From a virus (taxonomy: Duplodnaviria; Heunggongvirae; Uroviricota; Caudoviricetes): a stretch of DNA of 64,000 bases. The translations under genes were made by a program, and so were the position numbers. The stretch lies in the IMG/VR virus record IMGVR_UViG_2563366977_000001, positions 15,651 to 79,650 of that record; one strand, 5' to 3'. Below the pieces are notes generated by a model, which was not told where the DNA came from, did no database searches, and saw nothing but the letters and a program-made list of their open reading frames with translations. Shown here piece by piece: positions 15,378 to 63,838 of the stretch; position 1 is the stretch's first letter, and every line of letters begins with the position of its first letter.

Positions 15378-15738
15378 ATGAACATTAAACCTATCCGTAC
15401 AGAACAAGATTATGAGGCCGCACTGCGTGAAGTCGAACCGATGTTCGATAACGAACCGGAAATGAATACCCCGGAAGGTGATTTCTTTGAGGTCATGTGT
15501 CTTCTCATTGAGGAGTACGAGAAAAAACATTATTCCAATTGAGCCACCATCACCTATTGAAGCCATTAAGTTCCGTATGGAACAGCAAGGGCTGACCGTG
15601 AAGGATCTGGAACCGGCTATTGGTAAATCAAATCGTGTTTACGAGGTGCTAAATGGGACACGAAATTTGACGTTACCTATGATTCGCCGTTTACATTCCC
15701 AGTTTGGCATTCCTCTTGAAAGCCTAGTTGGTGTTTAA
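15378..15738 (+). pseudogene. Second HigA-like HTH antitoxin gene split by a 1-nt frameshift in an A6 tract
   Basis: ORFs 15357..15542 and 15478..15738 together resemble one HTH antitoxin; they differ by +1 frame at GAGAAAAAACATT (about 15521-15533). Confidence 0.45.
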
Positions 15739-17110: not shown

Positions 17111-17335
17111 CAAAGCCCACCTTAAGGTGGGCTTCGCCAGAAATTATTTTCTGGTATTCAGAACGCCATTACCGGACTTTGCCTTGACCAAGTATCACAA
17201 CAGGCTTGACCTGTTATGATAGCTGGTTGCGGGATGTCTGAATTTCTTCAGTCTGCTGCATCCTCGAAGGTTTGGTTCAACATGTACCATTCCTTCACCG
17301 TCATAATAGTGAACTATTCACGTCCTTACAAACAC

Positions 17336-24455: not shown

Positions 24456-24560
24456 TTGGCAGCCTCCTTTTGCTAATTTAAGGAGCTACCGCGTGAGGTC
24501 TCAATCTCAATGGCGGTAGCACTGGCTGGGTTGAGACTACCGGCGCAAAAGGGAACCGGC
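24456..24560 (-). ncRNA. Candidate c4-like antisense RNA region
   Basis: Noncoding leader before icd with complementary stems (GCTACCGC / GCGGTAGC, GGTCTCAA / TTGAGAC); by position only. Confidence 0.3.
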
Positions 24561-25256
24561 CTGCCTTTCGGCAGCCCAGCCAGCACTACCATTGATCTTG
24601 GAGCTATACGCTACGTATGGCTGTGCGATGGCATGACACAAAAAAAGACGCTTTCGGCGTCTGTGTCGCCTTTTGCATTATCCGGGGTCTCAATCCCGGC
24701 ACCCGTTTTTCTAAGGTGCCGTAGAAATATACCTCACGATAATGCCAGGGCGCAACAGTCAGTATTTTATGCTTTGGCGGATTTCTTCCGGGCTTGCTTG
24801 CAGGCGTAGGCCATTGCTTTAGCTTTCACTTCATCCAGCTTTCCGGTGATCACTTCTTTTCCGAGAGTGACAAACCAGTCATAGCAACCGCCAGTGATGT
24901 TCTGGATTTGAAAGTTGAGGTAGCGAACGGTCATTTTGACACCCCCAGCGCGAGTAAAGAATGCAGATTATCGCGTGAGTGGCGGACAACGAGTGATGGG
25001 AAAGGACAGTAGCTGTTCATAGTGTAGTGACTCCTTGCTTTCGGAGCCGCCATCGACTGTTCCACGGTCTGGTGGCGGCGCAATAAAGGTTGGAACACCG
25101 TGAGTCAACGGGGGCTTTTCAGCCACCTATATTGCACCGCCATTGGTATGGCGGCGGCAATCATACGAAAAACCAAACGGTTTGTCTCAAAAAGTTGACC
25201 GGTGTACCAATCGGTTGTGAATGTACAACGGCGAATCTCACAATTCAACTTAAAAT

Positions 25257-47065: not shown

Positions 47066-47140
47066 TTATCCCCCGGATAGAAAAAGACCGAGGGGATGAT
47101 AATCAGCTTGTTAATACTGAGAAGACTGTCAAAAACATGA

Positions 47141-47172
47141 TGTATTAGAAAATTAATATTAATTTACTAACG
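47141..47172. promoter_or_regulatory. Operator pair TATTAGAAAATTAA / TTAATTTACTAACG upstream of lpa-position gene
   Basis: Inverted pair of recurrent motif about 75 bp before the start codon. Confidence 0.5.
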
Positions 47173-48582: not shown

Positions 48583-48658
48583 TGGTGGCCCCTACCGGAC
48601 TTGAACCGGTGACCGTGCGATTATGAGTCGCCCGCTCTAACCACTGAGCTAAAGGGCC
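48583..48658 (-). tRNA. tRNA with CAU anticodon, most similar to tRNA-Ile2 (lysidine) rather than tRNA-Met
   Basis: Hand-folded cloverleaf: acceptor GGCCCTT/AGGGGCC, anticodon arm GGCGA-CTCATAA-TCGC, T-loop GGTTCAAGTCC, 3' CCA. Confidence 0.75.
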
Positions 48659-49087
48659 AGATTACTGTTAATTACGCTTACGCTTTTTGCCAGAACCGCG
48701 TAAGGCTTTTGCCGCTTGCTCTACCCCGTATGCAACCACCAGCAGAAACAATAATGTCCACTCCGGGTTTTTATCGGCAAACGCCCAAAAATCCATCACT
48801 TGCAGCCACCTTTTAAGACAAAACGCCATTGCTGTTAGGTTGCGGTGCCGGGTGCCTCCCGGTGACGTTAACCAGTTAACAATTAACGCCGGATCACTTA
48901 TGGATTCTCGTTACGCCAGTAAAAAGACCACCTTTACTGTTTTAACTGTTCCGCGTGCGCTTAGCCGCATTCACCGCAATGGTAAGAGCATTTGGCTGAC
49001 TGGGCGGCGATGACGCCTGTACGCATTTGGTGATCCGGTTCTGCTTCCGGCATTCGCTTAATTAGCCAAATACTCTTAACGTTGCGA

Positions 49088-49174
49088 TGGCGGAGAGTAA
49101 TGGAATCGAACCATCATCGCTTGCGCGACGGGACGGTTTTCAAGACCGCTTGAGCACCATGCTCCCTACTCTCC
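49088..49174 (-). tRNA. tRNA-Ser (UGA anticodon), long variable arm
   Basis: Acceptor GGAGAGT/ACTCTCC, discriminator G, anticodon loop CTTGAAA, 17-nt variable arm, T-loop TTCGATT, CCA. Confidence 0.6.
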
Positions 49175-49415
49175 AGTGATTGTGGTGGTCGGTACTGATC
49201 TCCGACTGCGCCTCTTTTTTTCATAGCCCATAAGGCCGGTCAGTGCGCTTGATGACTGAGGCATCGATATTTACTACGCCGCCTCGTTGCCATAGGGCGG
49301 ACTTGCGCGCCAGCAACGCGCATTCACCACAACGGAAAGAGCATTTATGGCTCGCATCGCGGGAAAAAGCCCACGGTAGAGAGTCGAACTCTACAAATGC
49401 TCTTACCTGTTGTGT

Positions 49416-49491
49416 TGGTGCCGGTTAACGGGATCGAACCGCTGACCATTCGCTTACAAAGCGACTGCTCTACCAACTGAGCTAAACCGGC
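49416..49491 (-). tRNA. tRNA-Thr (UGU anticodon)
   Basis: Acceptor GCCGGTT/AACCGGC, D-arm AGCTCAGTTGGTAGAGC, anticodon loop TTTGTAA, T-loop GGTTCGATCC, CCA. Confidence 0.8.
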
Positions 49492-49495
49492 AATT

Positions 49496-49582
49496 TGGTG
49501 GGGAGTGATGGAGTCGAACCACCCGAGTCGCAATGACAGTAGATTTACAGTCTACACCGCTACCTCTACGGACTAACTCCCC
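49496..49582 (-). tRNA. tRNA-Tyr (GUA anticodon)
   Basis: Acceptor GGGGAGT/ACTCCCC, anticodon arm GTAGA-CTGTAAA-TCTAC, long variable arm, CCA. Confidence 0.8.
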
Positions 49583-49587
49583 TAAAT

Positions 49588-49662
49588 TGGCGATGGTGGG
49601 TGGATTCGAACCACCGACCAGTTGGTTAACAGCCAACTGCTCTACCGCTGAGCTACACCATC
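49588..49662 (-). tRNA. tRNA-Asn (GUU anticodon)
   Basis: Acceptor GATGGTG/CACCATC, anticodon arm GTTGG-CTGTTAA-CCAAC, T-loop GGTTCGAATCC, CCA. Confidence 0.85.
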
Positions 49663-50148: not shown

Positions 50149-50975
50149 AAATATCCCACTCGCGGTATTGCCACTTAGGCGTATGGTCAACCTGGCAACT
50201 CGGTGTCCTCAACGGGGAAGGAATAACCCCGCCATACTTACCGCCGCGCCTGTCGCGGTTATCGCTACGTATCAACATAAAAGCCGACTGCCTGAGCAAG
50301 ATTCACTTTCAAAGGCCCGCAGAAAGGAATCCATAGTCGGCTTTTATCTTGAAGCGGCTCTCTCTCCGCCCGTCACCGTCCTATCCCGGTTGTCGCGTTT
50401 GCCACGCCAGCCGTAACGAGGTTTAAAGTCTTTTCACGTTTTCATCACTCGACTGCCGTCTATGGCTGTTCGTTGCAGCGGGGGTGCCTCCCCCTGGGGA
50501 TATCCCCGGCCTTACCCCCATTCTTTCAAAACACAATGCAAGGCCACATCCGCATAGGTGCATTACCGCAACGTTAAGGAGACTCAGAGTCAGCAAAATA
50601 AGAGGAAAACCCAACTCTGCGCCTCCTTAACGTTGAGGATGTTCACTGATGATGACCCGATGCAGCCTGGCCCACTTAACATACTCACTGCCAGATCATC
50701 ATCAATGAACACCTTAAAAAGACCTTCCGTGGCTCAAGTCACTGTCGTTTACTCCGTAAAATGCTCTCGCTGAAACCACTTTACGCACTAAACCTGCCGG
50801 GCATGTATTTGCACGGTGCCGGAGCTTTCCCTTACCTTAAAATTTACTTTCTAACACTTAAATTTGTTTGATGCTGGTGGGGAAAGACAATGAAGTGACT
50901 ATCAAACCCGCAAGCGACATGGGAAGCTCCCCACCAGCACGAAAAATTCTATGTTAAGTTAACCCTATAATCAAT

Positions 50976-51008
50976 ATGTTAGAAAGACAATTTTAATTTT
51001 CTAACACA
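50976..51008. promoter_or_regulatory. Operator pair ATGTTAGAAAGACAA / AATTTTCTAACACA abutting stop of ORF 51009..52217; single copy at about 50841-50857
   Basis: Inverted pair of recurrent motif heading a 1.3-kb noncoding stretch upstream of the tRNA cluster. Confidence 0.45.
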
Positions 51009-52217
51009 TTATTTCCCGTAAAGATTTTCAACTCCACCGTTCTTCTTATCCCACTCGTTCGCCCATACCCGGCAAGCATCAATTATTTCCTGACGGCGAT
51101 CGCCCTGCATGAACGGAATGCTTTCATGAAAGCTGCTTGGAATGCAGGCCACACTGAACACTGTATCAAACTCAGTCTGCTTGATTGCCTCCAACGTCTC
51201 TGGACGCATTTTCAATTCGTCGATCGGTGCATCCTTAGAGTCCATAATCCGGCGATGCAAGCGTGGAAAATCCGTTTCAAGGTACGCCATAATTTTATCT
51301 GCCAGACATTCGTCTATGTCGGTATTCCAGTCAGTTTCGAAGCCAGGAATTCGGTAGTAAAGCGGCGTTCCCCATACTGATGGGATCACATCCATCGTCA
51401 GCAGGCGGCTGGTTCTGATTTGCTGATGGTAATTTGCCGTCAGCAACGCTTCGCCACGTTGCCCAGTCTCCGCGACCAGACCATGCGGAAACTCATGGAT
51501 ATAGGCAATAGCTTCTCTTCCGTCATACATTAGCGGGAATGTCTCTGGCCTTTGCCCCATGCCACAGGCGCGATTCAGATCATGACCAAGCTCTGAACAC
51601 TCTCGTTTCAATGTTTCAATAATGCTCTGCGCCGCTGCTAACTTTTTACGCAGTGTGACGAGTTCGCCTTGATACTCAACGCATTGCTGATTTAGCTTGG
51701 TTAAACGCTCTTTTAGTTCGCGACGCTCTCTTTTCAGCGTGCGGTTATCTTTCTCCGCAACATCCAGTCGTTTTGTCAGGCTTGGCGGATAGTCTTTTTT
51801 GTAACGACTCAAATCGACTTCAGCAGATTTGCGCAGTGTATTTGCCTGCTCAAGACGCGCCTCCAGATTGCCGATCTCATTACGCATATTCGCGGCAAAT
51901 TGATTAACTGCATCCCCCAGGCTTTCAACTGTCGCTGATACACCAGTGACTTGAGAAAAACGGATCAAGCCATCATTAACGGCTTGCTGATATTCCTCAA
52001 ACTGATCCACCAGCTTATTGTAATCAACTGCCCCATCATCAAGGAGCTGGTTGATTTCCGCCACCAGGTTATCTGTAGTGGCAATGACGCTCTCATGCAG
52101 TCGCTTTGACAGGTCATCGCCCGGATTTCGTTTCTGTATAAGCGCGATTTGTGTCCGCAGCGTTTCAATTGCGGTTGAGATGATCTCCAGGCTTGATGAT
52201 TCTACTTGCTGACTCAT
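51009..52217 (-). CDS. Hypothetical protein, N-terminal coiled coil
   Basis: 402-aa ORF; long heptad-like N-terminal half; operator motif 20-35 bp upstream. Confidence 0.45.
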   Translation of the reverse strand: MSQQVESSSLEIISTAIETLRTQIALIQKRNPGDDLSKRLHESVIATTDNLVAEINQLLDDGAVDYNKLVDQFEEYQQAVNDGLIRFSQVTGVSATVESLGDAVNQFAANMRNEIGNLEARLEQANTLRKSAEVDLSRYKKDYPPSLTKRLDVAEKDNRTLKRERRELKERLTKLNQQCVEYQGELVTLRKKLAAAQSIIETLKRECSELGHDLNRACGMGQRPETFPLMYDGREAIAYIHEFPHGLVAETGQRGEALLTANYHQQIRTSRLLTMDVIPSVWGTPLYYRIPGFETDWNTDIDECLADKIMAYLETDFPRLHRRIMDSKDAPIDELKMRPETLEAIKQTEFDTVFSVACIPSSFHESIPFMQGDRRQEIIDACRVWANEWDKKNGGVENLYGK

Positions 52218-52235
52218 GTTTGTTCCCTTCCTTGA

Positions 52236-52254
52236 AATTAGTTTTCTAACACAT
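52236..52254. promoter_or_regulatory. Operator-like motif (AATTAGTTTTCTAACACAT) upstream of ORF 51009..52217
   Basis: Recurrent motif followed by GGAAGGG RBS and ATG. Confidence 0.45.
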
Positions 52255-52295
52255 TTTATTAGTATGCAATTTCAATAAAAAGACTCAGGCAACAA

Positions 52296-52320
52296 AAAAC
52301 CCGCCAACTGGCGGGTTTAT
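52296..52320 (-). terminator. Minus-strand terminator (AAACCCGCCAGTTGGCGGGTTT + T-run)
   Basis: Perfect hairpin followed by TTTTTTG on minus strand, after stop of ORF 52327..52653. Confidence 0.55.
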
Positions 52321-52326
52321 GACCGT

Positions 52327-52653
52327 TTAGACGTGTTGGAGTAGCATGTATGCCATATAAATCAAAGCTATCAGTACGACAACTACCTCTGAAATTCTAA
52401 ACGCGCGCTTTACTATCTGCCGCTCACCGTGGGGTATACCATCCGAGTATTCCTGATCCGTCATTTTCCCCAGCCAGCTTACCGATAACAGAGCTGCATT
52501 CTCACTCATATCAAGTTCACTTACGGCCTCTCGTATAAGTGGCGCGGTTACTTTCCTGGAAGCAACTTTCATGGTTATGCTTCTGGTTCTTCCGGCGTCA
52601 TCAGCAAACGTCAGATTTACGTGGTGTTTTCTGCTCAATGAACAAACTCCCAA
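52327..52653 (-). CDS. Hypothetical protein with C-terminal TM helix
   Basis: 108-aa ORF; C-terminal VVVVLIALIYMAYMLL. Confidence 0.3.
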   Translation of the reverse strand: MGVCSLSRKHHVNLTFADDAGRTRSITMKVASRKVTAPLIREAVSELDMSENAALLSVSWLGKMTDQEYSDGIPHGERQIVKRAFRISEVVVVLIALIYMAYMLLQHV

Positions 52654-52835
52654 TCATTGGCTTTCGCGCTTTCCGGGGTAATGCATACCTTGTCGCCGGT
52701 AACTATGTTTCGGGCTTCTAATGCCCCATCATCCATCTTTTTAAGCTCTATACAGAAAGAATGAGGCCATGAGCAGCGACGAGCAACAACGTTAGCACCG
52801 GCAGGGATAAGTTCAGCCACGTTAAGTAAACGCAA
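52635..52835 (-). CDS. Hypothetical small protein
   Basis: 66-aa ORF in operon. Confidence 0.25.
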   Translation of the reverse strand: MRLLNVAELIPAGANVVARRCSWPHSFCIELKKMDDGALEARNIVTGDKVCITPESAKANDWEFVH

Positions 52836-52849
52836 AACGATTTCTCCGT

Positions 52850-53293
52850 TTAATCAAGATTTACATATTCCGTGATAGCTTTTATGGCTTCATCGGCACT
52901 GCGCGCCTCAAAGCAGTAATAGCCTGCTTCCGTGAGGCGGGTCATCCAGACGAGCTGTTCGGGAGTCAGACGGTTTCTCCCGTGCTTCATCTCAATGCGC
53001 ATTCCGTGATACCCACCACGAGCAAGGTCAATAGAAAGGTCCGGATAGCCCTTCTTCTGACCTTCTGCCACCATCTTAATGGCTGTCCTTTTGCCTCTCA
53101 GGCCGCCGTTCGGTGTTGAGTGTGTGTGCTCATACACGTATCGCATGTTGCGATACAGCCAATCCAGAACGCGAACCTGTTCGTAATGTTCGTAATTCCG
53201 TTTTAATAAGTCAGGATTTCTTTCTAACTCTCTCAGTGCAGCAGCGTGCGGGGATATTTCAGAATACGCACTATGATGCCTGCGTCTTCGCAT
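52850..53293 (-). CDS. VRR-NUC-like (PD-(D/E)xK) nuclease domain protein
   Basis: Trimmed to ATG 53293; GYPDLSIDL ... EMKHGRNRLTPEQ pattern; operator motif AAATTTCTAACACAAA abuts start. Confidence 0.5.
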   Translation of the reverse strand: MRRRRHHSAYSEISPHAAALRELERNPDLLKRNYEHYEQVRVLDWLYRNMRYVYEHTHSTPNGGLRGKRTAIKMVAEGQKKGYPDLSIDLARGGYHGMRIEMKHGRNRLTPEQLVWMTRLTEAGYYCFEARSADEAIKAITEYVNLD

Positions 53294-53482
53294 TAAATTT
53301 CTAACACAAACTTCCTGAAATAATGAACACGATAATAACAAGAGCGTTAGTTTTATCAAAACCGAGGGAAATACTACTAAAGAGATAGGCGGATGCAACA
53401 GGTCGGACTTGTTTTTAGAGTAAATGGTGATGCGGGTCAACAAGCCGGGTAAATTGTATGTCATTTACCCAACTTGTTATTT

Positions 53483-53743
53483 TTAATGGTTTATTTTATC
53501 CGGTTCGTTAATTTCCGTAACCGACTTGTCGATAGCAATCATCCATCCTTCATAGGATAAATCATCAACAAGCCCCACCAGCTTATCGTCAGTGTGCGGA
53601 AAATAAATCCATCCCCATTTCGAAGGGTTTTCTATATGCCGCAGGGTAAATACCCGCTTATAACGGTGGTATTCAAGGGCGTATCCCTTCCCTTGTGAGT
53701 ACGCTTTTAAGTCGTCGATCGTAAACCTACGATTCTTTCGCAT
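53483..53743 (-). CDS. Hypothetical protein
   Basis: 86-aa ORF. Confidence 0.3.
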   Translation of the reverse strand: MRKNRRFTIDDLKAYSQGKGYALEYHRYKRVFTLRHIENPSKWGWIYFPHTDDKLVGLVDDLSYEGWMIAIDKSVTEINEPDKINH

Positions 53744-53745
53744 GG

Positions 53746-54180
53746 CTACCCCACGATTCGATATTTCTCTATAGACTCGTCGTAACTTGTGTATACGTAT
53801 GGCTCTGTATCATCAGCATAAGGCGCGACTTCCAGAGCATGAACGGGATTGTATACCGCGTCATTTTCCAGGCGATCGCTCGAATACAGATGCCCGGCTA
53901 AAACCGTAAGCGCCGGGCGACTCATTTTGTAGATCTCTGCCACATCACTATCTACAACTTGTCCAAATGATATGTCGCCGCGCTCCAGCAATAACGTTTT
54001 AAGCGCAGGCCACCACGGCCCATAAAGGTGATAAAGCTGTGGATCTCTTTTCAGCCTTTCCACCATGCCATCCAGATATGCATCCAGAAACGCCTCTTCA
54101 CTCCTGCCATTGAGCGCCTGCGGCAAAATGTCCTCAAGGTAGGATTCCGTCGGTTTTACAGTGTCAATTAATGTCGTCAT
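53746..54180 (-). CDS. Hypothetical protein immediately downstream of darB
   Basis: 144-aa ORF. Confidence 0.35.
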   Translation of the reverse strand: MTTLIDTVKPTESYLEDILPQALNGRSEEAFLDAYLDGMVERLKRDPQLYHLYGPWWPALKTLLLERGDISFGQVVDSDVAEIYKMSRPALTVLAGHLYSSDRLENDAVYNPVHALEVAPYADDTEPYVYTSYDESIEKYRIVG

Positions 54181-54216
54181 TCAAATTCGGCCCCGGATGG
54201 GGCCGCTCCTTATCTG

Positions 54217-57200
54217 TTAGGCCGCATCGGCGATTATTTTACGCAGTTCATCTACCGAGTAACGCGTAGATACCATCCATGCCGGACGGTCAAAGTTCAC
54301 ATCAGCAACCGGGTTTGCTTCAAAATTCCAGAAACGCCCGCCAATCTTCTTAATCGCGTCTTTGGCGTTCCGTATTGTCGAGGAACCTGGTTGGTCGGCA
54401 ATGAGATAAACCGCACCGACGTCCTCGCTGACGCTCCACCAGCGCCCGCGAACACGCGCCTTCGCGCGAATCGGCTTATCATTAACCACAATGATATAGT
54501 CATCATTCGCCGCTTCATCAGCTCTGGCTTCAGCCACTGCCGCCTGCTCTTCTCTTTTGCTTTCAGCCTGTTCAAGCCTTTCCGCGATCTCTGATTCGGT
54601 GGCCCCGCCGTTTTTCAGCGATACATAGTCTTGCCACGTTGCTGATTTGAGCGCATCCGGCAACTCATTCACATAGTCACCGTCTTTCAACTCACGGGCG
54701 CGGCGGGTAGCCATTTCTACCAGGCGATTAACAGAAACAGCATCAGCAAAATCGTCCTTACTAATGTGTTTTTCATCAAATGCATTGATGACAGCCCCCA
54801 CCTTAATCCACTGTGCTGCCGGTGATTCCAGGGGGTTATCAGCCTGGACAATGGCGAGTTTCGCTCCATCTACCCCATTATTCGCCAACTGTTCCAGTGC
54901 CGCCCATCCATCTGCATCACTGAGTGATTTATATTGCTCAAACAATGCATCGCGCCAGGCCGCCAGCGCAGAACGTGTTTTTTCGATCTTCGTCTTAATT
55001 TTCGCGATCTTGACCTGATTAAACATCCGTTCAATATCATCGATATTGCTAAAGGCTTTCATCCTGCCCTTGAATAAACGGTATGCCAGCACGGTCCTCC
55101 AGAATGATTCCAGACCTTCTCCGGACGGTTTGCGGAACAAGCTAAGAATATCTTCAGAAGTGACTTTATTAAGCGAACGACCTGACAGACCACGCCCAGC
55201 CATCCAGTTTTCGAACTCCTGGGCAACATCATCCATCGTTGCCTGTGCGCCCCATGCCTGCATTCCCTGGATGTAATCATACCCATACAATGCCTGGAGG
55301 AATCCCTCACCGTCCACGATATTCAGCGGGTTATCACTGGCTTGTATTTTTGCCACTTCACGCTTCAGCGCCTCATCGTTGCCATCTGGATATATCCATC
55401 GTTCAGGTACTATATCCGATGCTCGCCCGATTTTTTGGCCTATCACGCCATCATAGGCCGATGACAGCGCGATCTGACCATCATCTGTGCGATATGCCCA
55501 GTATTTAATAGCTGACCCACCGCCCCATGCATTACCAGGTTTACCAGCAATAACATTCATTACCCCATTGCGAATAGCATCATAGAACTGATCGCGAGTA
55601 AGTATTGTTGATAGCTGGTGGCACTGAACACCACGCGCAGCCGTTGCGCGCGATTCAGCTACCCCCTCTTCAAAAGTTACCGCTTCAATCACAGAGTCAA
55701 ACGGCAATGTAACGATTGACCCCGGTGATCGAGCGTAACGACTTGCTCTATCCAGCCAGGCGATACGGCAGAGGTATTGTGCTTTTTCACCGTCAATTTT
55801 TTCCACCCGGACAATCGCTGTTGTTTCGCGATCATCAATGACTGCACGGTAATAACTACCTTTATGCAACAGGATATTCTTGTCAGTGCGCATATATTCC
55901 TGTGGGTTCTGAATAACATCGATACTGATATCCAGCACACCAGACTTAATAGCGCGCTCCACATCACCACGAGAGCGTTTCATTATGGTATCCGCGTCTT
56001 TTGCCCTGGTGATCGCAAACCGCAGCACCCGCGCACGTTTTCTGTAGCTACTCAACTGCTCAAGCGCGAATTTTTGCCCATTCCTGTTCGTACCCGCTTT
56101 TATCAGGTCGTCAAGATTTCGCTGGTAATACTCTATCTGTTCCATCGCGCTTTTCAGTTCTGTCTCCATCATGCCGATATCTTTTCCAGCGGCGTTTGCC
56201 GCTTTCAGGTAGATATCGAGAGCATTGTTGGCCTCGCGCTGTGCTTTCAGTTTCAGACGTTCTTCACGCTCTTGCGCCTGGCGAGCCATGATTGCGCGGC
56301 GTTCTTCCGGGTTTGCCGCCAGCATAATGGCGCGTTCATCAGCATCATCCGCATCACCATTGGCGATCTCTGACATGTCGGAGGTCATCACCATCTTGAT
56401 CCAGTCTTTCTTACGTTTCAGCGTATCCAGACGGAAGTCGTCGAATGTGCCTTTGCCACAATAGTAGTGAACATTGACCTTCTCTTGCGGTGAACCTACG
56501 CGCGCACCGCGCCCATTTCGTTGGTCGATACTGGCTGGTGTCCAGGGTAGTGTCAGGTGGTGGATATCGGTTGTCCCGATATGCAGGTTAATACCTACTT
56601 CAGCCTTCTTGTTACAGATAATGATGCGCGTGCGCCCTTCGTTATAGTCGGCGGCAATGCCTTCCATACCCTCAAGGCCAGCATCATTTTTAGCTGAGAG
56701 ATAATCCTCATATTGGGCAAGTTTGCTGTAGTAGGTTTCCCATGCCCCTTCTTTGTATTCACCGTTTTTATTCGGAGTAGGTTCAGTCGGCTTATTCACC
56801 TTCTTCAGCTTGATGCCGCCAGCCTGGCTAACGGTCGTCGCATTGATAATGCCTATCTCCTGCTCCGGCATTTGCAGTGCACTGGCGATAATACGGCGCA
56901 GCTTCTGGTGCTGGGCTTTTTCATCAATGAAGACAATTTGTTTACCGTTCTTCAGACCTTCACGAAGGTTTTCGATCAGCGCGGCATACTTCGGCGGGAT
57001 GGGGTGTGATACCTGCTGCAGATCAATCCCGGCGGCAGCAATGGCCTTCAGTATTTCAGCTTCCAGTTCAATGCTGGCACGTATTTCAACATGCGCCGGA
57101 TGTTCACTAAAGGTGGTCTTCACTACCTTACTGGTGCGCGTACTAACCAGCCCACCAGCGCCGTCTTCTTCGGCCTCGTCTGCATCATCTGCCACTTTAC

Positions 57201-60200
57201 CGCCAGCTACTTTTGGCAGGGCATCAGCAATAGCTTTTACCTTGTCTGCAAGCTCAACGGGGAACTGGAATGTAATCGCACTGGCATACAGATCCGGATC
57301 TATAGCAACCTTATCCATGTCGCGGATGATGGAGAAGATGAAATCATCCGGTTTTTCGTTTGTGATATGCCCGTTTTCATCAACCGTCAGCGCATCTTTA
57401 CTACTTAACTCCTGTGCACGCTTACGAAGCTCTTCATAAGCAGCCTCCTGCTCCCCTGTCATCGGGATCTGCAAGGTATTCTCGACAATATCAGGGATTT
57501 TAACCGTCGCCCCGACGTCCGCAGCAGTCTTCAGAGTAGTCCAGCGATGGAAAATACCACGCAGGCCATCAAGGTTCTGGAAGCCAACCAGCCCCTGCTT
57601 CTCTTCCACTTCCCCGGAAATTTTCTGGACCTGAACTGTGGCTGTTTTACCAAACACACGAACGAAATCATCAGGCGTAATGATGCCCATGCGCATCCAC
57701 TCTTCCTGCGGAATGACAGTAGACAGCATGTTGAAGGCATCAATCGGACTGTTCACCAGCGGTGTTGCCGTCAGCATGACTACACCACGCCCGTTGTTGC
57801 GTTTCATCATGTACGCAGCTTTTACAGCCATGTCGCGGGCCATCTTGGATACTGCCGGGTTAGGCAAATATGCCAGTTGTCCCGCTTCACGCCCGGCATT
57901 AAAGGAGTTGCGGTAGTTATGCCCCTCGTCGGCAATCACGCTATCGAAGTTCATATCCTCAAAGTACGGGATATTCTGCTTCTTCGTTGTACCGGTATTC
58001 GCGGCCTGATCCTTAATCTTGTTCTTCTTCTGCGCATCACGGTGTTTACCAGACGCCAGGTCAAGACGCCCCATTTCCACAGCATTAAAGACAGCTTGCT
58101 GTGAGTTCTCCTCGATGGTTTTTTCTCGTAGCGGGATAGACGCGAATTGTTCTTTTGTCATGATGACCGTTCGCCAATTTGACGACGGGATCATGTTCAT
58201 GCGCTGAACGATAACGGCGCTGGCGGACTCTTTCACAACATTTCTGGTAAGAGGCTGCCCGTTACTGTCGAGGCGTGGTTCGCCATTTTCATCAAGCACC
58301 GGCGCGGTCAGAATATTTCCGCTGTCATCACGAACTTCATCCAAACCGATAAACATCATATTGGCGAAGGCATCAGCACTGTAGAAACTCTGTGCCTCGT
58401 GATACCAGTTCTGATAAACCGCCTTCGGAACAACAATACACGTGCGTTTAGTGCGACCTGTTTCGAAGTTATACGCCTCAAGCGCAAGCGCGGTCGTGGT
58501 TTTACCCAGCCCGGTACCAAATCCCATGATGCCGCGCCCATCTTCTGACAAGCGACGAACTTCTTCATTCTGATAAGTCAGAGGAATGCGCTTTCCACTA
58601 ATCCCTTCCAGGCCAAGCGGTGCGTTAGAGTGCGTGAACGGAATGAAGCCATTGAATGCGTCGTTATAGTCACGGGCTATCTGATCCGCCTGCGGGTGGG
58701 TGCGTAACCAGTCGTTAAAGCTAACTTCCAGTTGAGCAATTTTATCCAGGTACTCGTTAGCGTTCTGCCCACGCGGTTTAACACCGTTCAGGTAGTTTTC
58801 TAACTGGTTCAGGAAGCCGTCTTTATTGTTGGCCTTCTTGAACTCATTCCCGTTTTTGCCGTTTACGGTTCGTAGTTGATAGCCGGTAAATACCCCGTCC
58901 TTACCTTCGTAATCGTCCGGAGATACCAGAATGCCATCGACGACCTTCAGATCAGGTTCAGTGTACTTAAACTCGTCATAGCCCTGCTCTGCCAGGAACT
59001 CTTTTATCAAGCGGCGATCCAGCCAGCGGGCGTTCAGATTAACGGTGACTTTATTTAGTGGCGTGAAAATGCGTTTCTCTTCGATTTTCGCCAACTGACG
59101 CTCAAAGTTCGCTTTCTGTTCACCTGTTGACGCATCACGCCAGCCCACCAGCAATGTTGTTTTGGTTGCAATATCGCCGCTGGTGGCGCGGTCCATCGGC
59201 AGCAGGCAGCCATACCCATCAATAGCGATATCATCAAATTTCGCCAGGTATTCAAGGGCCGCGTCGTCGTCCTCTGGCAGTTCACCAGCAAACGCCTCAC
59301 GAAAGTCGCCCAGCGTTATAGGATTAAGGGCTACATCACTGAAAAGATGTGCTATCACTTGTTCCGGACGTGTAAAGTCAATACCGGCAGCACCATCCGT
59401 TACATCAAGTCGCCCTGCCAGAAGGTCAGAAGTGGAACCATCCTGTTTCACATTGCCAGTGAACGTCATCCAGTTTTTAGCGCCAGCTTCAGCAAGCCCA
59501 TTCAGCTTAATCGCGTGCGGTGGTCCATACTTCGCAACTTCTGCTGCCGCCAGGCGGGATGCATCTGCCAGTTTGTCATCAACGTTCACCCCCAGGTTAC
59601 GCAAATCAAGTGCCTTGTTGATCAACTGCCCTATCAACGCACCGCGCATAACGCGCTCCCTGTCTTTTTCTCGCTGTTTGCCAGCAAAGCGAATCATTGC
59701 TGCCACTTCATCACTGACAACCGATGGATAGTCGGACGCGATCGCCGATATCTGGTCCCATGACAAAGCCAGAATCCCGTTTGTTGACTGGAATGCGATC
59801 TGCAGATCGCCAAACGTCGAAACACCATATCGACTTACATCAAGCGCGGAGGATTTGGTTGTCGTGTCCTTAACCCATTTCAGGCCATCAAACTCATGCC
59901 AGATACCGCCTACAAGACGCTTATCCCCTACTTTTGCGCCCTGCCATGCCTGGGTAGTTACTCCGAGCAAATCCCAATTAATACGGCTTTCAAAGCGGCG
60001 TGATAACGCGGTTTTCATCGACTCATTGGATACACGACCGTCCTTTTTCACCACCAGGGTATTGCGGAAGCTGGTGCGTTCCATGTCGCCGTAAACAAAT
60101 CGCTTCCCTTCGGTTGTAAACCATTTCCCTTTGAGGAAGGTATCCCAAAGGACGTTTGCCGATTTGAGCGTTGCATCATCCGTGTCGGGGATCATCTCCA

Positions 60201-61068
60201 GGAAGGTTTCCGGGTGTTTACGCAATACCCATACGTCCACCACGGTATCTGTACCGGACTCGCTGAACGTACCAGAAGGCATACGATGCGCGCCCAAAAA
60301 TTCCGCTTTACGGCTGACTTTATCGCGCAATTTTTTGTATTTCGTACCATCGGTCATGCCATTCGGCACCACCAATACAATTAGTCCACCAGGCTTAACC
60401 TTGTCGATCGTGCGCAGCACAAAATAATTGCCAACGTTCTTCTCGTTTGCATATGCCGGATCAAGCCCGGCGACGCCGGAACGCCCTTCGCCAAACGGTA
60501 CGTTACCAACTGCGTGGTCATACATTGCATCTTTCGCCGCCAGCGCCTCAAACGCCCCGATATTCACATCATCTTCCGGGTGCAAAAGCTGGTTTATTCG
60601 ACCGGAGATCGGAGACAGTTCGGCGCTGGTCATTATCATGCCCTGCCGTTTTGTCTCCTGGAAAATACCTGTGCCTGCTGACGGTTCCAGTACGTGACCG
60701 CTATCAATACCGTAGTCGCCGAAGAGATCCCATATACCTTCTGCCATAAACTGTGGCGTATAGTATTCGTATTGGCTGCCCTCACCATCTGTCAGGCCGC
60801 CTTCACCGGTATACCCGGCAAGAATCTGGCGCTGTTCGTCAGTTAATTTCGCCCCATCGAAGCCAGGCGGAAGGGAATTAAGAAGATTTACTGCGGCGTT
60901 GTTTGCTGCCCGGCGTGTTTTCTGAATACTGACGCCATCGACTTTCTTAACGCCAAAGGTCACTACAGCTCGCGGTTTATGCAACCGACTAACAATTTCA
61001 ATCAGCGCCCCAATGCTGGTGGCCTGGCTAATTGAATCAATTATTTTGTCCAAAGGAAGCCCCCTCAA
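54217..61068 (-). CDS. darB: DarB-like giant methyltransferase-helicase (capsid-packaged anti-restriction protein in P1)
   Basis: 2283 aa; N-terminal MTase motifs (LEPSAGTGIF, NVPF), central helicase Walker A GFGTGLGKTT and DEGH box. Confidence 0.85.
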   Translation of the reverse strand: MRGLPLDKIIDSISQATSIGALIEIVSRLHKPRAVVTFGVKKVDGVSIQKTRRAANNAAVNLLNSLPPGFDGAKLTDEQRQILAGYTGEGGLTDGEGSQYEYYTPQFMAEGIWDLFGDYGIDSGHVLEPSAGTGIFQETKRQGMIMTSAELSPISGRINQLLHPEDDVNIGAFEALAAKDAMYDHAVGNVPFGEGRSGVAGLDPAYANEKNVGNYFVLRTIDKVKPGGLIVLVVPNGMTDGTKYKKLRDKVSRKAEFLGAHRMPSGTFSESGTDTVVDVWVLRKHPETFLEMIPDTDDATLKSANVLWDTFLKGKWFTTEGKRFVYGDMERTSFRNTLVVKKDGRVSNESMKTALSRRFESRINWDLLGVTTQAWQGAKVGDKRLVGGIWHEFDGLKWVKDTTTKSSALDVSRYGVSTFGDLQIAFQSTNGILALSWDQISAIASDYPSVVSDEVAAMIRFAGKQREKDRERVMRGALIGQLINKALDLRNLGVNVDDKLADASRLAAAEVAKYGPPHAIKLNGLAEAGAKNWMTFTGNVKQDGSTSDLLAGRLDVTDGAAGIDFTRPEQVIAHLFSDVALNPITLGDFREAFAGELPEDDDAALEYLAKFDDIAIDGYGCLLPMDRATSGDIATKTTLLVGWRDASTGEQKANFERQLAKIEEKRIFTPLNKVTVNLNARWLDRRLIKEFLAEQGYDEFKYTEPDLKVVDGILVSPDDYEGKDGVFTGYQLRTVNGKNGNEFKKANNKDGFLNQLENYLNGVKPRGQNANEYLDKIAQLEVSFNDWLRTHPQADQIARDYNDAFNGFIPFTHSNAPLGLEGISGKRIPLTYQNEEVRRLSEDGRGIMGFGTGLGKTTTALALEAYNFETGRTKRTCIVVPKAVYQNWYHEAQSFYSADAFANMMFIGLDEVRDDSGNILTAPVLDENGEPRLDSNGQPLTRNVVKESASAVIVQRMNMIPSSNWRTVIMTKEQFASIPLREKTIEENSQQAVFNAVEMGRLDLASGKHRDAQKKNKIKDQAANTGTTKKQNIPYFEDMNFDSVIADEGHNYRNSFNAGREAGQLAYLPNPAVSKMARDMAVKAAYMMKRNNGRGVVMLTATPLVNSPIDAFNMLSTVIPQEEWMRMGIITPDDFVRVFGKTATVQVQKISGEVEEKQGLVGFQNLDGLRGIFHRWTTLKTAADVGATVKIPDIVENTLQIPMTGEQEAAYEELRKRAQELSSKDALTVDENGHITNEKPDDFIFSIIRDMDKVAIDPDLYASAITFQFPVELADKVKAIADALPKVAGGKVADDADEAEEDGAGGLVSTRTSKVVKTTFSEHPAHVEIRASIELEAEILKAIAAAGIDLQQVSHPIPPKYAALIENLREGLKNGKQIVFIDEKAQHQKLRRIIASALQMPEQEIGIINATTVSQAGGIKLKKVNKPTEPTPNKNGEYKEGAWETYYSKLAQYEDYLSAKNDAGLEGMEGIAADYNEGRTRIIICNKKAEVGINLHIGTTDIHHLTLPWTPASIDQRNGRGARVGSPQEKVNVHYYCGKGTFDDFRLDTLKRKKDWIKMVMTSDMSEIANGDADDADERAIMLAANPEERRAIMARQAQEREERLKLKAQREANNALDIYLKAANAAGKDIGMMETELKSAMEQIEYYQRNLDDLIKAGTNRNGQKFALEQLSSYRKRARVLRFAITRAKDADTIMKRSRGDVERAIKSGVLDISIDVIQNPQEYMRTDKNILLHKGSYYRAVIDDRETTAIVRVEKIDGEKAQYLCRIAWLDRASRYARSPGSIVTLPFDSVIEAVTFEEGVAESRATAARGVQCHQLSTILTRDQFYDAIRNGVMNVIAGKPGNAWGGGSAIKYWAYRTDDGQIALSSAYDGVIGQKIGRASDIVPERWIYPDGNDEALKREVAKIQASDNPLNIVDGEGFLQALYGYDYIQGMQAWGAQATMDDVAQEFENWMAGRGLSGRSLNKVTSEDILSLFRKPSGEGLESFWRTVLAYRLFKGRMKAFSNIDDIERMFNQVKIAKIKTKIEKTRSALAAWRDALFEQYKSLSDADGWAALEQLANNGVDGAKLAIVQADNPLESPAAQWIKVGAVINAFDEKHISKDDFADAVSVNRLVEMATRRARELKDGDYVNELPDALKSATWQDYVSLKNGGATESEIAERLEQAESKREEQAAVAEARADEAANDDYIIVVNDKPIRAKARVRGRWWSVSEDVGAVYLIADQPGSSTIRNAKDAIKKIGGRFWNFEANPVADVNFDRPAWMVSTRYSVDELRKIIADAA

Positions 61069-61163
61069 AACCGTTAAATCCGCCTTAAGCGGTACGGTTT
61101 GAGAGGGTATGGAGTGTGTTAATTTCGCAGAATCACACCCCGAAGGTTCTTACTCAAAAGGGA

Positions 61164-61637
61164 TCATGGTTGTACCTGGATAACATCCCCGTTCTTAACG
61201 GTGATGATTTCATCCAGAATAATAACTTGCGGATAATTACCTGCATACCAACTGAACGAACCAAACACCTCATATTGGCCTGGTGGTACGTTTTCAAATT
61301 CAAATTTGCCTTGAGCATCTGTCAGGACAGTTTTGTCATATTCCACAGCCCGGCCATCGATTGTTTCCAAGATCTGCGTATTGTAATTAATTTGTGGGGT
61401 GTTTTTGATATACGTCGTATATGGGCGGAGAGTAATTTTAGAACCAGCCCCAATCTTCACATCGCCGCCACGCGTCATACCAAATAACTCCCCCTTAACC
61501 TTGCCAGTGCCTTCTTTCGGCAATGCCTGGTACTCTTCTACGGGAAATGCAGGGCGTTTTACGACTTGCTTTTGAATAGGCGCACATCCTGATAATGCAA
61601 ATGCACAAACAATAGCCGCTAATATTGTTTTTTTCAT
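61164..61637 (-). CDS. Lipoprotein
   Basis: Start placed at MKKTILAAIVCAFALSGC by codon arithmetic from the ORF track; lipobox LSGC. Confidence 0.5.
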   Translation of the reverse strand: MKKTILAAIVCAFALSGCAPIQKQVVKRPAFPVEEYQALPKEGTGKVKGELFGMTRGGDVKIGAGSKITLRPYTTYIKNTPQINYNTQILETIDGRAVEYDKTVLTDAQGKFEFENVPPGQYEVFGSFSWYAGNYPQVIILDEIITVKNGDVIQVQP

Positions 61638-63476: not shown

Positions 63477-63804
63477 AGTTACGGCCTCACTAACAGGTTT
63501 AACAACCTGCTACCCGCTGTCAAACAGGTGGCAGGACGTGACAGGGTTGACAGACTGGCGTTAGTGAAACCAGCAGGCCGAAGCCTCCCCATCACGCCCC
63601 ACCATAATTCGGGCGTAACGCGGTTTACGGACACAAAAATACCGCAATATCGGAAATCTGCGGTTGTCCGCACTAACATTCAGGCTGTCAAACCTGGTCG
63701 CAGAATTTGCTACGACGGCATGAATATAAGCCTGAACATTAGAAAGATCAACAGAATTTTTATCAGATGCTGTTTTTTTGTGACGATGTAAATCATACAT
63801 TCTT

Positions 63805-63838
63805 GATTAGAAACATCAATTTAATTTTCTAACATACA
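63805..63838. promoter_or_regulatory. Operator pair TTGATTAGAAACATCAA / AATTTTCTAACATA upstream of second immI copy
   Basis: Inverted pair of recurrent motif. Confidence 0.45.

Follow-up and report, generated by a model that had tools for sequence, protein, structure and literature searches.

A darB-ulx module in a D6-like phage-plasmid

The 64,000-nucleotide (nt) stretch of tailed-phage DNA analysed here, hereafter the window (positions 15,651 to 79,650 of the IMG/VR record IMGVR_UViG_2563366977_000001), carries at 51009-61068 a giant gene resembling darB of phage P1, followed by a series of smaller genes. The locus raises the question of what these smaller genes are: novel antirestriction or defence cargo, as a sequence-only reading of the region had proposed, or parts of a module that is already known. 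All coordinates are those of the window, and the features described within 51009-61068 lie on its minus strand, where every sequence feature described by that reading was indeed found.

Comparison of the region with phage genomes by megablast revealed 93.8% nucleotide identity over 97% of the query to orf9–orf15 of Escherichia phage D6 (reference record MF356679 / NC_050154), and collinearity with D6 extends over all 64 kb of the window, at nucleotide identities of roughly 78-96%. The D6 genome was reportedly described by Gilcrease and Casjens in 2018. Its annotation lists identical genes in identical order and orientation, namely orf15 (darB), orf14 (ulx), orf13, orf12 (pmgM-like), orf11, orf10 (pmgR-like), and orf9 (pmgS-like); the operators, the terminator, the darB leader hairpin, and the late-promoter box discussed below are also common to both. 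By its sequence, the window is a D6-like, P1-family phage-plasmid, and the region very likely represents the darB–ulx antirestriction module together with the adjacent pmgM–pmgR and pmgS genes of such an element. The locus is already sequenced and annotated in D6, and its gene layout is a documented rearrangement of D6 relative to P1. Little in it is new: this is the P1 Dar antirestriction module in the form already published for D6. The gains of the present analysis are corrected gene names and starts, a late-promoter pattern proposed for the D6 lineage, and the reading of a recurring motif as the D6-type C1 operator. Two leads lend themselves to testing, the hairpin at the darB ribosome-binding site and a domain of PmgS resembling the C-terminal domain of the RNA polymerase α subunit (αCTD), to be set against the annotation of this protein as a scaffold.

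The module is found in more than 100 sequenced phage-plasmids of E. coli, Salmonella, and Shigella. A plasmid search returned 113 records with at least 80% of the region, and five plasmids from E. coli or E. marmotae are 99.3–99.6% identical to it, the best match (99.6%) being an E. marmotae plasmid. The order darB-ulx-orf86-VRRNUC-orf66-pmgS is also kept in L008, a more distant relative. Conservation relative to D6 is uneven along the cluster, with protein identities of 98% for DarB, 98.6% for Ulx, 73% for the 86-residue protein (orf86), 85% for the VRR-NUC protein, 71% for the 66-residue protein (orf66), 50% for the PmgR-like protein, and 94% for PmgS. The four genes from orf86 to pmgR are thus far more diverged than darB, ulx, and pmgS.

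DarB, Ulx, and the P1 Dar operon

The maximal open reading frame (ORF) at 54217-61068 encodes 2283 amino acids (aa). The real start of darB is likely the TTG at 61053, located 7 nt after the Shine-Dalgarno sequence GAGGGGG, which places the gene at 54217-61053 and gives a protein of 2278 aa, as in the D6 annotation. The protein combines an N6-adenine methyltransferase, an SNF2/DExH helicase, and a divergent C-terminal third. In a blastp comparison, residues 6-2283 of the maximal ORF align end to end with residues 1-2255 of P1 DarB at 39.3% identity, and the motifs of both enzymatic domains are common to the two proteins: EPSAGTG (motif I) and NVPF (motif IV) of the methyltransferase, and GTGLGKT (motif I), DEGH (motif II), and QRNGRGAR (motif VI) of the helicase. 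The proposal that the giant ORF is a DarB-like methyltransferase-helicase is borne out by this full-length homology. Pfam models match the helicase part (SNF2-rel_dom with E = 4.8e-13, ResIII, and Helicase_C), and N6_Mtase scores 20.1 bits, just under its 20.4-bit cut-off, while the PADLOC defence models give only generic helicase and methyltransferase matches on DarB. The last 600 residues or so are just 19–31% identical to P1 DarB. Relative to D6, the ratio of nonsynonymous to synonymous substitution rates (dN/dS) of darB is 0.085. No solved structure was found for DarB or Ulx.

The first gene downstream of darB, at 53746-54180, encodes a 144-aa protein that is 46% identical to P1 Ulx over 138 aa and 98.6% identical to the D6 orf14 product, and that belongs to the PHROG family phrog_1629, 'Ulx-like anti-restriction' (4.8e-59). 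In P1, DarB and Ulx are head proteins, and the first 30 residues of DarB are a sufficient capsid-targeting signal (PMC9024508); Ulx is a component of the Dar system that aids the localisation of DarB (PMC9024508 Table 1; PMC12810830). By extension from P1, DarB of the window would be a capsid-packaged methyltransferase-helicase, loaded into the procapsid with the help of Ulx, which would enter the cell with the DNA and protect it in cis from type I restriction of the EcoK/EcoB type. The intergenic stretch between the darB stop and the ulx ATG (54181-54216, minus strand) contains AGGAG and a GGCCCC-ATCC-GGGGCC hairpin. The sole Shine-Dalgarno-like sequence of ulx lies 30 nt from the ATG, unless the hairpin shortens this distance.

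The comparison with the P1 Dar operon shows both likenesses and differences. DarB is homologous over its full length with the same methyltransferase and helicase motifs, and ulx follows directly downstream in both elements. P1 has the order darB-ulx-lxc, whereas no lxc homologue follows ulx here. The P1 prt/pro genes lie upstream of darB and are divergent, while a lipoprotein gene or a CHAP-domain gene occupies the upstream position in the D6-like elements. The statement in the sequence-only reading that P1 carries head-protease genes downstream of darB was mistaken, since these are the upstream, divergent prt/pro genes, and the genes downstream are ulx and lxc. Finally, the P1 pmgL–pmgM and pmgR–pmgS genes are located near 78.6–83.7 kb, unlinked to darB (10.5–17.2 kb), whereas their counterparts here are found downstream of darB-ulx.

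A candidate late promoter and a leader hairpin upstream of darB

For P1 darB, only a predicted sigma-70 promoter is annotated. A search for the P1-type late box, AAGTGACTT-N3-5-TAnnnT, yielded only four weak matches in the window, none of them sensibly placed. A common pattern, AAT[C/A]ACA-N7-TAnnnT, is found ahead of the D6 late operons, and the relaxed form A[AT]T[ACT]ACA-N7-[TG]AnnnT has 10 matches in D6 against 3.0±1.6 in shuffled sequences, a count that is partly circular because the pattern was derived from the same sites. Eight of the ten matches stand directly before late operons (darB, prt, ddrB, lydA, pmgB-sit, 23, upfC, and gene 7), and the matches in the window precede the capsid gene, upfC, gene 7, lpa-pacAB, and darB. 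The one upstream of darB, ATTAACA-CACTCCA-TACCCT at 61104-61123, is a candidate late-promoter element of the D6 family. During lytic growth, a late promoter that depends on Lpa and lies about 50 nt ahead of darB would drive a transcript of about 9 kb covering darB, ulx, orf86, the VRR-NUC gene, orf66, and pmgR, up to the terminator at 52297. Such late transcription fits a protein that is required during procapsid assembly.

The darB leader is predicted to fold into a hairpin at 61058-61107 with a minimum free energy of -26.7 kcal/mol (z = -4.4). The Shine-Dalgarno sequence GAGGGGG forms part of the 3' arm, and the 5' arm shares bases with the -10 element and the expected transcription start region. 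D6 has the same architecture, and so do L008, L029, L030, L033, and L036, where it is built from different sequences. Covariation is modest, with helix 1 paired in 92.6% of cases and two pairs changed on both sides in alignment A4, because the available darB leader sequences come mostly from close relatives. P1 darB has no such leader hairpin. The structure may sequester the darB ribosome-binding site and could silence translation on read-through transcripts only, as a late transcript starting about 7 nt after TACCCT would lack the masking arm.

A comparable arrangement is the fold-back inhibition of IS10 transposase translation, where the bases complementary to the ribosome-binding site are found at the gene's own transcription start or upstream of it, so that only read-through transcripts could be masked. 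The likeness is a purely structural analogy, and the darB start on which it depends is a predicted one.

The downstream genes are mostly homologues of P1 pmg genes

As the sequence-only reading had it, five small ORFs follow darB on the same strand, with lengths of 144, 86, 204 (probably 147), 66, and 108 (probably 103) aa, and pmgS lies beyond them. Sequence comparison assigns four of the six genes beyond darB to the families of P1 ulx, pmgM, pmgS, and, more weakly, pmgR, and not to new defence cargo.

The pmgM homologue at 52850-53293 encodes a nuclease of the VRR-NUC family, counting 147 aa from the ATG at 53293; this start is uncertain, and the maximal ORF has 204 aa. The VRR-NUC assignment made for one of the small ORFs is upheld by Pfam VRR_NUC (PF08774; E = 8.9e-6, 26.2 bits against a 23.8-bit cut-off), by 56% identity to P1 PmgM, and by the match to the nearest solved relative, psNUC (4qbl; E = 1e-16), with which the catalytic PD…ExK…Q residues align as GYPDL…RIEMK…PEQ. 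The protein belongs to phrog_5702, 'Holliday junction resolvase', and the RefSeq name of P1 PmgM is already 'VRR-NUC domain-containing protein'. When they stand alone, VRR-NUC proteins of bacteria and viruses are Holliday-junction resolvases that work as dimers, as shown for stNUC, saNUC, and psNUC (PMC4103454). Like psNUC (4QBL), stNUC, and saNUC (Pennell et al. 2014), the window protein has a single domain, about 145 aa, and the active-site residues in register, and it differs from these stand-alone resolvases by an extra basic N-terminal tail, RRRRHH. Most likely, the protein would resolve junctions as a dimeric nuclease, removing branches from DNA that has been replicated or recombined before it is packaged by the headful mechanism. 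This is the most economical reading, and it is consistent with pmgM being non-essential in P1.

The start of the VRR-NUC gene differs between records over 52850-53464 (minus strand). D6 is annotated from an upstream TTG that overlaps the -10 element (164 aa), RefSeq gives 98 aa, a version that lacks the segment homologous to P1 PmgM from residue 38 onward, and the ATG in the window gives 147 aa. A sigma-70-like promoter precedes the gene at 53332-53359 (TTGATA-16-TATTAT, TG-extended, 10 of 12 consensus positions), and its D6 counterpart, TTTACA-17-TATTAT, is kept amid otherwise diverged sequence.

The pmgR-like gene at 52327-52638 encodes 103 aa from a TTG that overlaps the orf66 stop codon (maximal ORF, 108 aa). 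Its product resembles P1 PmgR at 29% identity over 62 aa (E = 7.6e-6, blastp in a ten-protein database) and shares with it the motif S(Y/W)LGKMT; the PHROG matches are phrog_9115 and phrog_3177 (6.8e-10 for the latter), and tblastn against P1 returned nothing at E < 0.01.

The two remaining genes encode the 86-aa protein (53483-53743; D6 orf13, phrog_6844) and the 66-aa protein (52635-52835; D6 orf11, phrog_7206), the latter with GGAG 8 nt before a TTG start. For both, D6 is the only matching phage record, and tblastn and blastp against P1 gave no homologue. The 86-aa family comprises five protein clusters, of which the named ones are all from Escherichia, and it appears to be confined to D6-like elements of this genus. 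The dN/dS values relative to D6 are 0.18 for the 86-aa protein, whose position is also occupied in L008, and 0.16 for the 66-aa protein, for which L008 has a 66-aa ORF in the equivalent position. Both are evidently real genes under purifying selection. Searches with NCBIfam gave nothing specific for the small ORFs.

Could the small proteins nevertheless extend the Dar system? One possibility is that the 86-aa and 66-aa proteins, transcribed together with darB–ulx, are extra Dar-type factors, either capsid-loading helpers or injected anti-defence proteins, and that at the same time the fold-back hairpin limits darB translation to transcripts from the late promoter; we consider this combination unlikely. 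The broader proposal that the ORFs downstream of darB encode capsid-packaged cargo of a new antirestriction or defence type, unique to this element, is improbable as well. It draws on the strand that the ORFs share with darB-ulx, probably within the same late transcript, on the 86-aa and 66-aa proteins, which lack a P1 homologue or a known function, and on the gene order maintained in the more distant L008. Against this stand the homology of three of the ORFs to pmgM, pmgR, and pmgS, genes that P1 carries without linkage to its darB, and the occurrence of the annotated arrangement in D6 and in over 100 plasmids. In addition, Ulx, the 86-aa, VRR-NUC, 66-aa, and PmgR-like proteins have no match to the PADLOC defence models. 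Synonymous divergence (dS) from D6 also separates the genes: it is approximately 0.1 in darB and ulx and 0.5 in pmgS, but reaches at least 0.95, up to saturation, from orf86 through pmgR, which does not describe one recently exchanged module. This mosaic implies that darB-ulx was recently exchanged by recombination as a module without the small ORFs, and such separate exchange argues against a tight functional coupling with them.

Published P1 genetics points in the same direction. The check that had been suggested, deleting each ORF and plating on type I restriction hosts, is already in print for P1 homologues: in-frame ΔpmgM and ΔpmgS mutants give infectious virions with the parental restriction phenotype on EcoA, EcoB, and EcoK (PMC9024508 section 3.2, Table S3, Fig. 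S1). P1 pmgR is a morphogenesis gene, whose deletion leaves heads and tails unjoined (PMC9024508), and a CRISPR interference screen scored darB, ulx, pmgM, and pmgS of P1 as non-essential (PMC10695390).

PmgS is probably not a prohead scaffold

The last gene of the region, at 51009-52217, encodes a 402-aa protein that matches P1 PmgS over the full length at 20% identity (415 columns, E = 1.7e-15) and is PmgS-like by its PHROG assignment (phrog_1660, 3.8e-143, residues 1-401). PADLOC returns coiled-coil matches only. Using an alignment of 59 sequences obtained by exhaustive hidden Markov model search, AlphaFold2 generated a model with a predicted local distance difference test (pLDDT) score of 86, in which long helices (residues 7-217) are followed by a small beta domain and, at the C-terminus, by a further helical domain. 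An earlier run on a 10-sequence alignment was poor (pLDDT 64); a profile search in a word-indexed database had found no further PmgS homologues, and the exhaustive search did add some. In the better model, the C-terminus appears to be an αCTD-like domain. The description of this protein as a coiled-coil protein under its own operator agrees with the modelled helices and with the operator copy found 25 nt before its ATG.

An intrinsic terminator separates pmgS from pmgR, as the sequence-only reading had noted. It consists of AAACCCGCCAGTTGGCGGGTTT followed by TTTGTT at 52297-52318, with a 9-bp stem including six G-C pairs and a T run, and is kept in D6 and L008. Together with an operator, it divides pmgR from pmgS, unlike the P1 pmgR–pmgS unit.

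The D6 GenBank record names PmgS a prohead scaffolding protein, and the long N-terminal coiled coil is indeed of the type found in scaffolds. We nevertheless regard this function as very unlikely. P1 ΔpmgS plates normally, and the P1 virion proteome paper does not name PmgS in its main text or in the table of detected proteins given there (PMC9024508). The P1 capsid structure paper states that there is no separate scaffold protein, with the N-terminus of the capsid protein and DarA thought to supply scaffolding (PMC12810830). Moreover, pmgS stands under a C1 operator and is without a late promoter, and an αCTD-like C-terminal domain is not typical of scaffolds. Because the gene is very probably C1-repressed, the P1 deletion is normal, and no separate scaffold is reported for P1, PmgS is probably not a scaffold and the D6 label is unlikely to apply; it would rather be a coiled-coil protein absent from the virion, whose αCTD-like domain probably binds DNA or protein.

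A recurring motif, very probably the C1 operator

The motif GTGTTAGAAA occurs 22 times in the window with at most one mismatch, compared to 3.9 expected matches, and extends to about RTGTTAGAAAAYTAAWWT. Mapping of the sites in D6 and the window placed exact copies before c1, lpa, c4-icd-ant, repL, ref, hrdC-dcm-dmt, ppp/pdcB, pmgM, and pmgS, and a bivalent site before the tRNA-tci operon, which together are the positions of the C1 operators of P1 (Oc1, Olpa, Oc4, OrepL, Oref, Odmt, Oppp, O26, OpmgRab, and Oban). Since the sites match the positions of P1 C1 operators, the motif is very probably the D6-type C1 operator, and GTGTTAGAAA(AYTAAWWT) would be the binding site of the D6-type C1 repressor. 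The suggestion that the recurring motif is an operator therefore very probably holds, judging from site positions and over-representation. Rfam C4 and c4-a1b1 matches lie just downstream of the site at 63835. C1 operators of the P1 type are asymmetric, about 17 bp long, and stand singly or as overlapping inverted copies ahead of immunity and early genes; the motif here likewise has single and palindromic copies in such positions. The operator differs from the P1 consensus, with GTGTTAGAAAAYTAAWWT here and ATTGCTCTAATAAATTT in P1, which fits a different immunity specificity.

Within the region, the core at 53298-53307 ends 4 nt before the ATG 53293 of the VRR-NUC gene, as had been described, and is kept in D6 amid diverged flanks. 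Upstream of pmgS, a -10-like TAAAAT is directly followed by the operator (GTGTTAGAAAACTAATTT, 52236-52264), a positional match to P1 OpmgRa/b, with the motif itself at 52252-52243; a block of about 30 nt, ACTAATAAAAT[G/A]TGTTAGAAAACTAATTT, is common to the window and D6 at this place. Both of these copies, the one at the VRR-NUC gene and the one at pmgS, have the opposite orientation in L008. A bivalent, palindromic operator of 32 bp at 50976-51007 lies just after pmgS and belongs to the next operon, as the positional equivalent of P1 Oban; the operon beyond it comprises a promoter, a structured leader, five minus-strand transfer RNA (tRNA) genes, and tciAB. In the P1 pmgL–pmgM and pmgR–pmgS units, whose VRR-NUC, PmgR, and PmgS proteins are homologous to those of the window, each unit has its C1 operator (O26 and OpmgRa/b), as here. 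The operator between the internal sigma-70 promoter and the VRR-NUC start could allow expression of pmgM–orf66–pmgR once C1 is inactivated, and the one overlapping the pmgS promoter would make pmgS a separate C1-repressed unit, as proposed by analogy with P1 pmgR–pmgS.

That GTGTTAGAAA is no repressor operator and serves as the -22 box of Lpa-dependent D6 late promoters, the initial reading that was dropped after all sites in D6 and the window had been mapped, is very improbable: TAAnnT-like hexamers after the motif, one copy between capsid gene 23 and orf52, and the absence of the P1-type late box from the window, which calls for another box, speak for it, but the sites precede early or immunity genes (c1, lpa, c4-icd-ant, repL, ref, and dmt), the site mapping shows none ahead of prt, lydA, R, pmgB-sit, gene 7, or gene 26, they occur both singly and in palindromic pairs and may point towards the gene or away from it, and the late operons are preceded by the other conserved box, AATCACA-N7-TAnnnT.

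Besides the partial circularity of the late-promoter count, several observations weigh against the interpretation of the region as a D6-like Dar module with adjoining C1-controlled pmg genes. The first 30 residues of DarB, which correspond to the capsid-targeting signal of P1, are only about 17% identical to P1 DarB in a hand count on the two N-termini. The further Dar genes hdf, darA, ddrA, and ddrB lie outside the window and are seen in the D6 annotation only. The homology to PmgR is weak. The VRR-NUC start codon is not conserved, the ATG at 53293 being GCG in D6, and no Shine-Dalgarno sequence is found near it. Lastly, the promoters, operators, and operon boundaries in D6-like elements rest on sequence patterns and positional analogy.

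Neighbouring features of the window

Directly upstream of darB and on the same strand, a gene at 61164-61637 encodes a 157-aa lipoprotein of phrog_14789, which has a CarboxypepD_reg-like domain and the lipobox LSGC. The gene is part of about 700 extra bp that are absent from D6, and the E. marmotae plasmid with 99.6% identity carries it too; it is probably a moron.

Right after the palindromic operator downstream of pmgS, the stretch at 50855-50974 (minus strand) contains a sigma-70-like promoter, TTGATT-17-TAGAAT, then a conserved hairpin of about 70 nt, GCUGGUGGGG…CCCCACCAGC (-30 kcal/mol, z = -3.4), with an operator copy at 50857 beyond it. This stretch is unannotated in D6 and has no Rfam match; it may serve the tRNA-tci operon as a leader or as a small RNA. 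Rfam gave nothing credible in the 1.4 kb between pmgS and the tRNAs, and nothing inside 51009-61068. The five tRNA genes (Met, Ser, Thr, Tyr, and Asn) are located at 48583-49662 on the minus strand, and their D6 counterpart is at L005 7145-7850. Three D6 tRNAs are on the minus strand according to ARAGORN and on the plus strand in the D6 record, and the Tyr and Met tRNAs of the window were not found in D6.

Elsewhere in the window, the Rfam matches on the minus strand comprise two genes for C4 antisense RNA and a single c4-a1b1 target element (24509-24596, 63524-63609, and 63677-63729). Each C4 RNA gene adjoins an icd-antirepressor pair, and the two C4 loci imply that the element carries two immI-type loci, like D6. 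Matches at the Rfam gathering level were also obtained for sroH (17112-17297, minus strand, 113 bits) and isrK (24641-24719, minus strand, 59 bits). Finally, lpa is preceded within 47096-47151 by a bivalent operator at 47142 and a late-promoter-like box at 47115 (minus strand), and lpa and pacA overlap in D6. A pacAB late promoter located upstream of lpa may result in positive autoregulation of lpa, unlike in P1.

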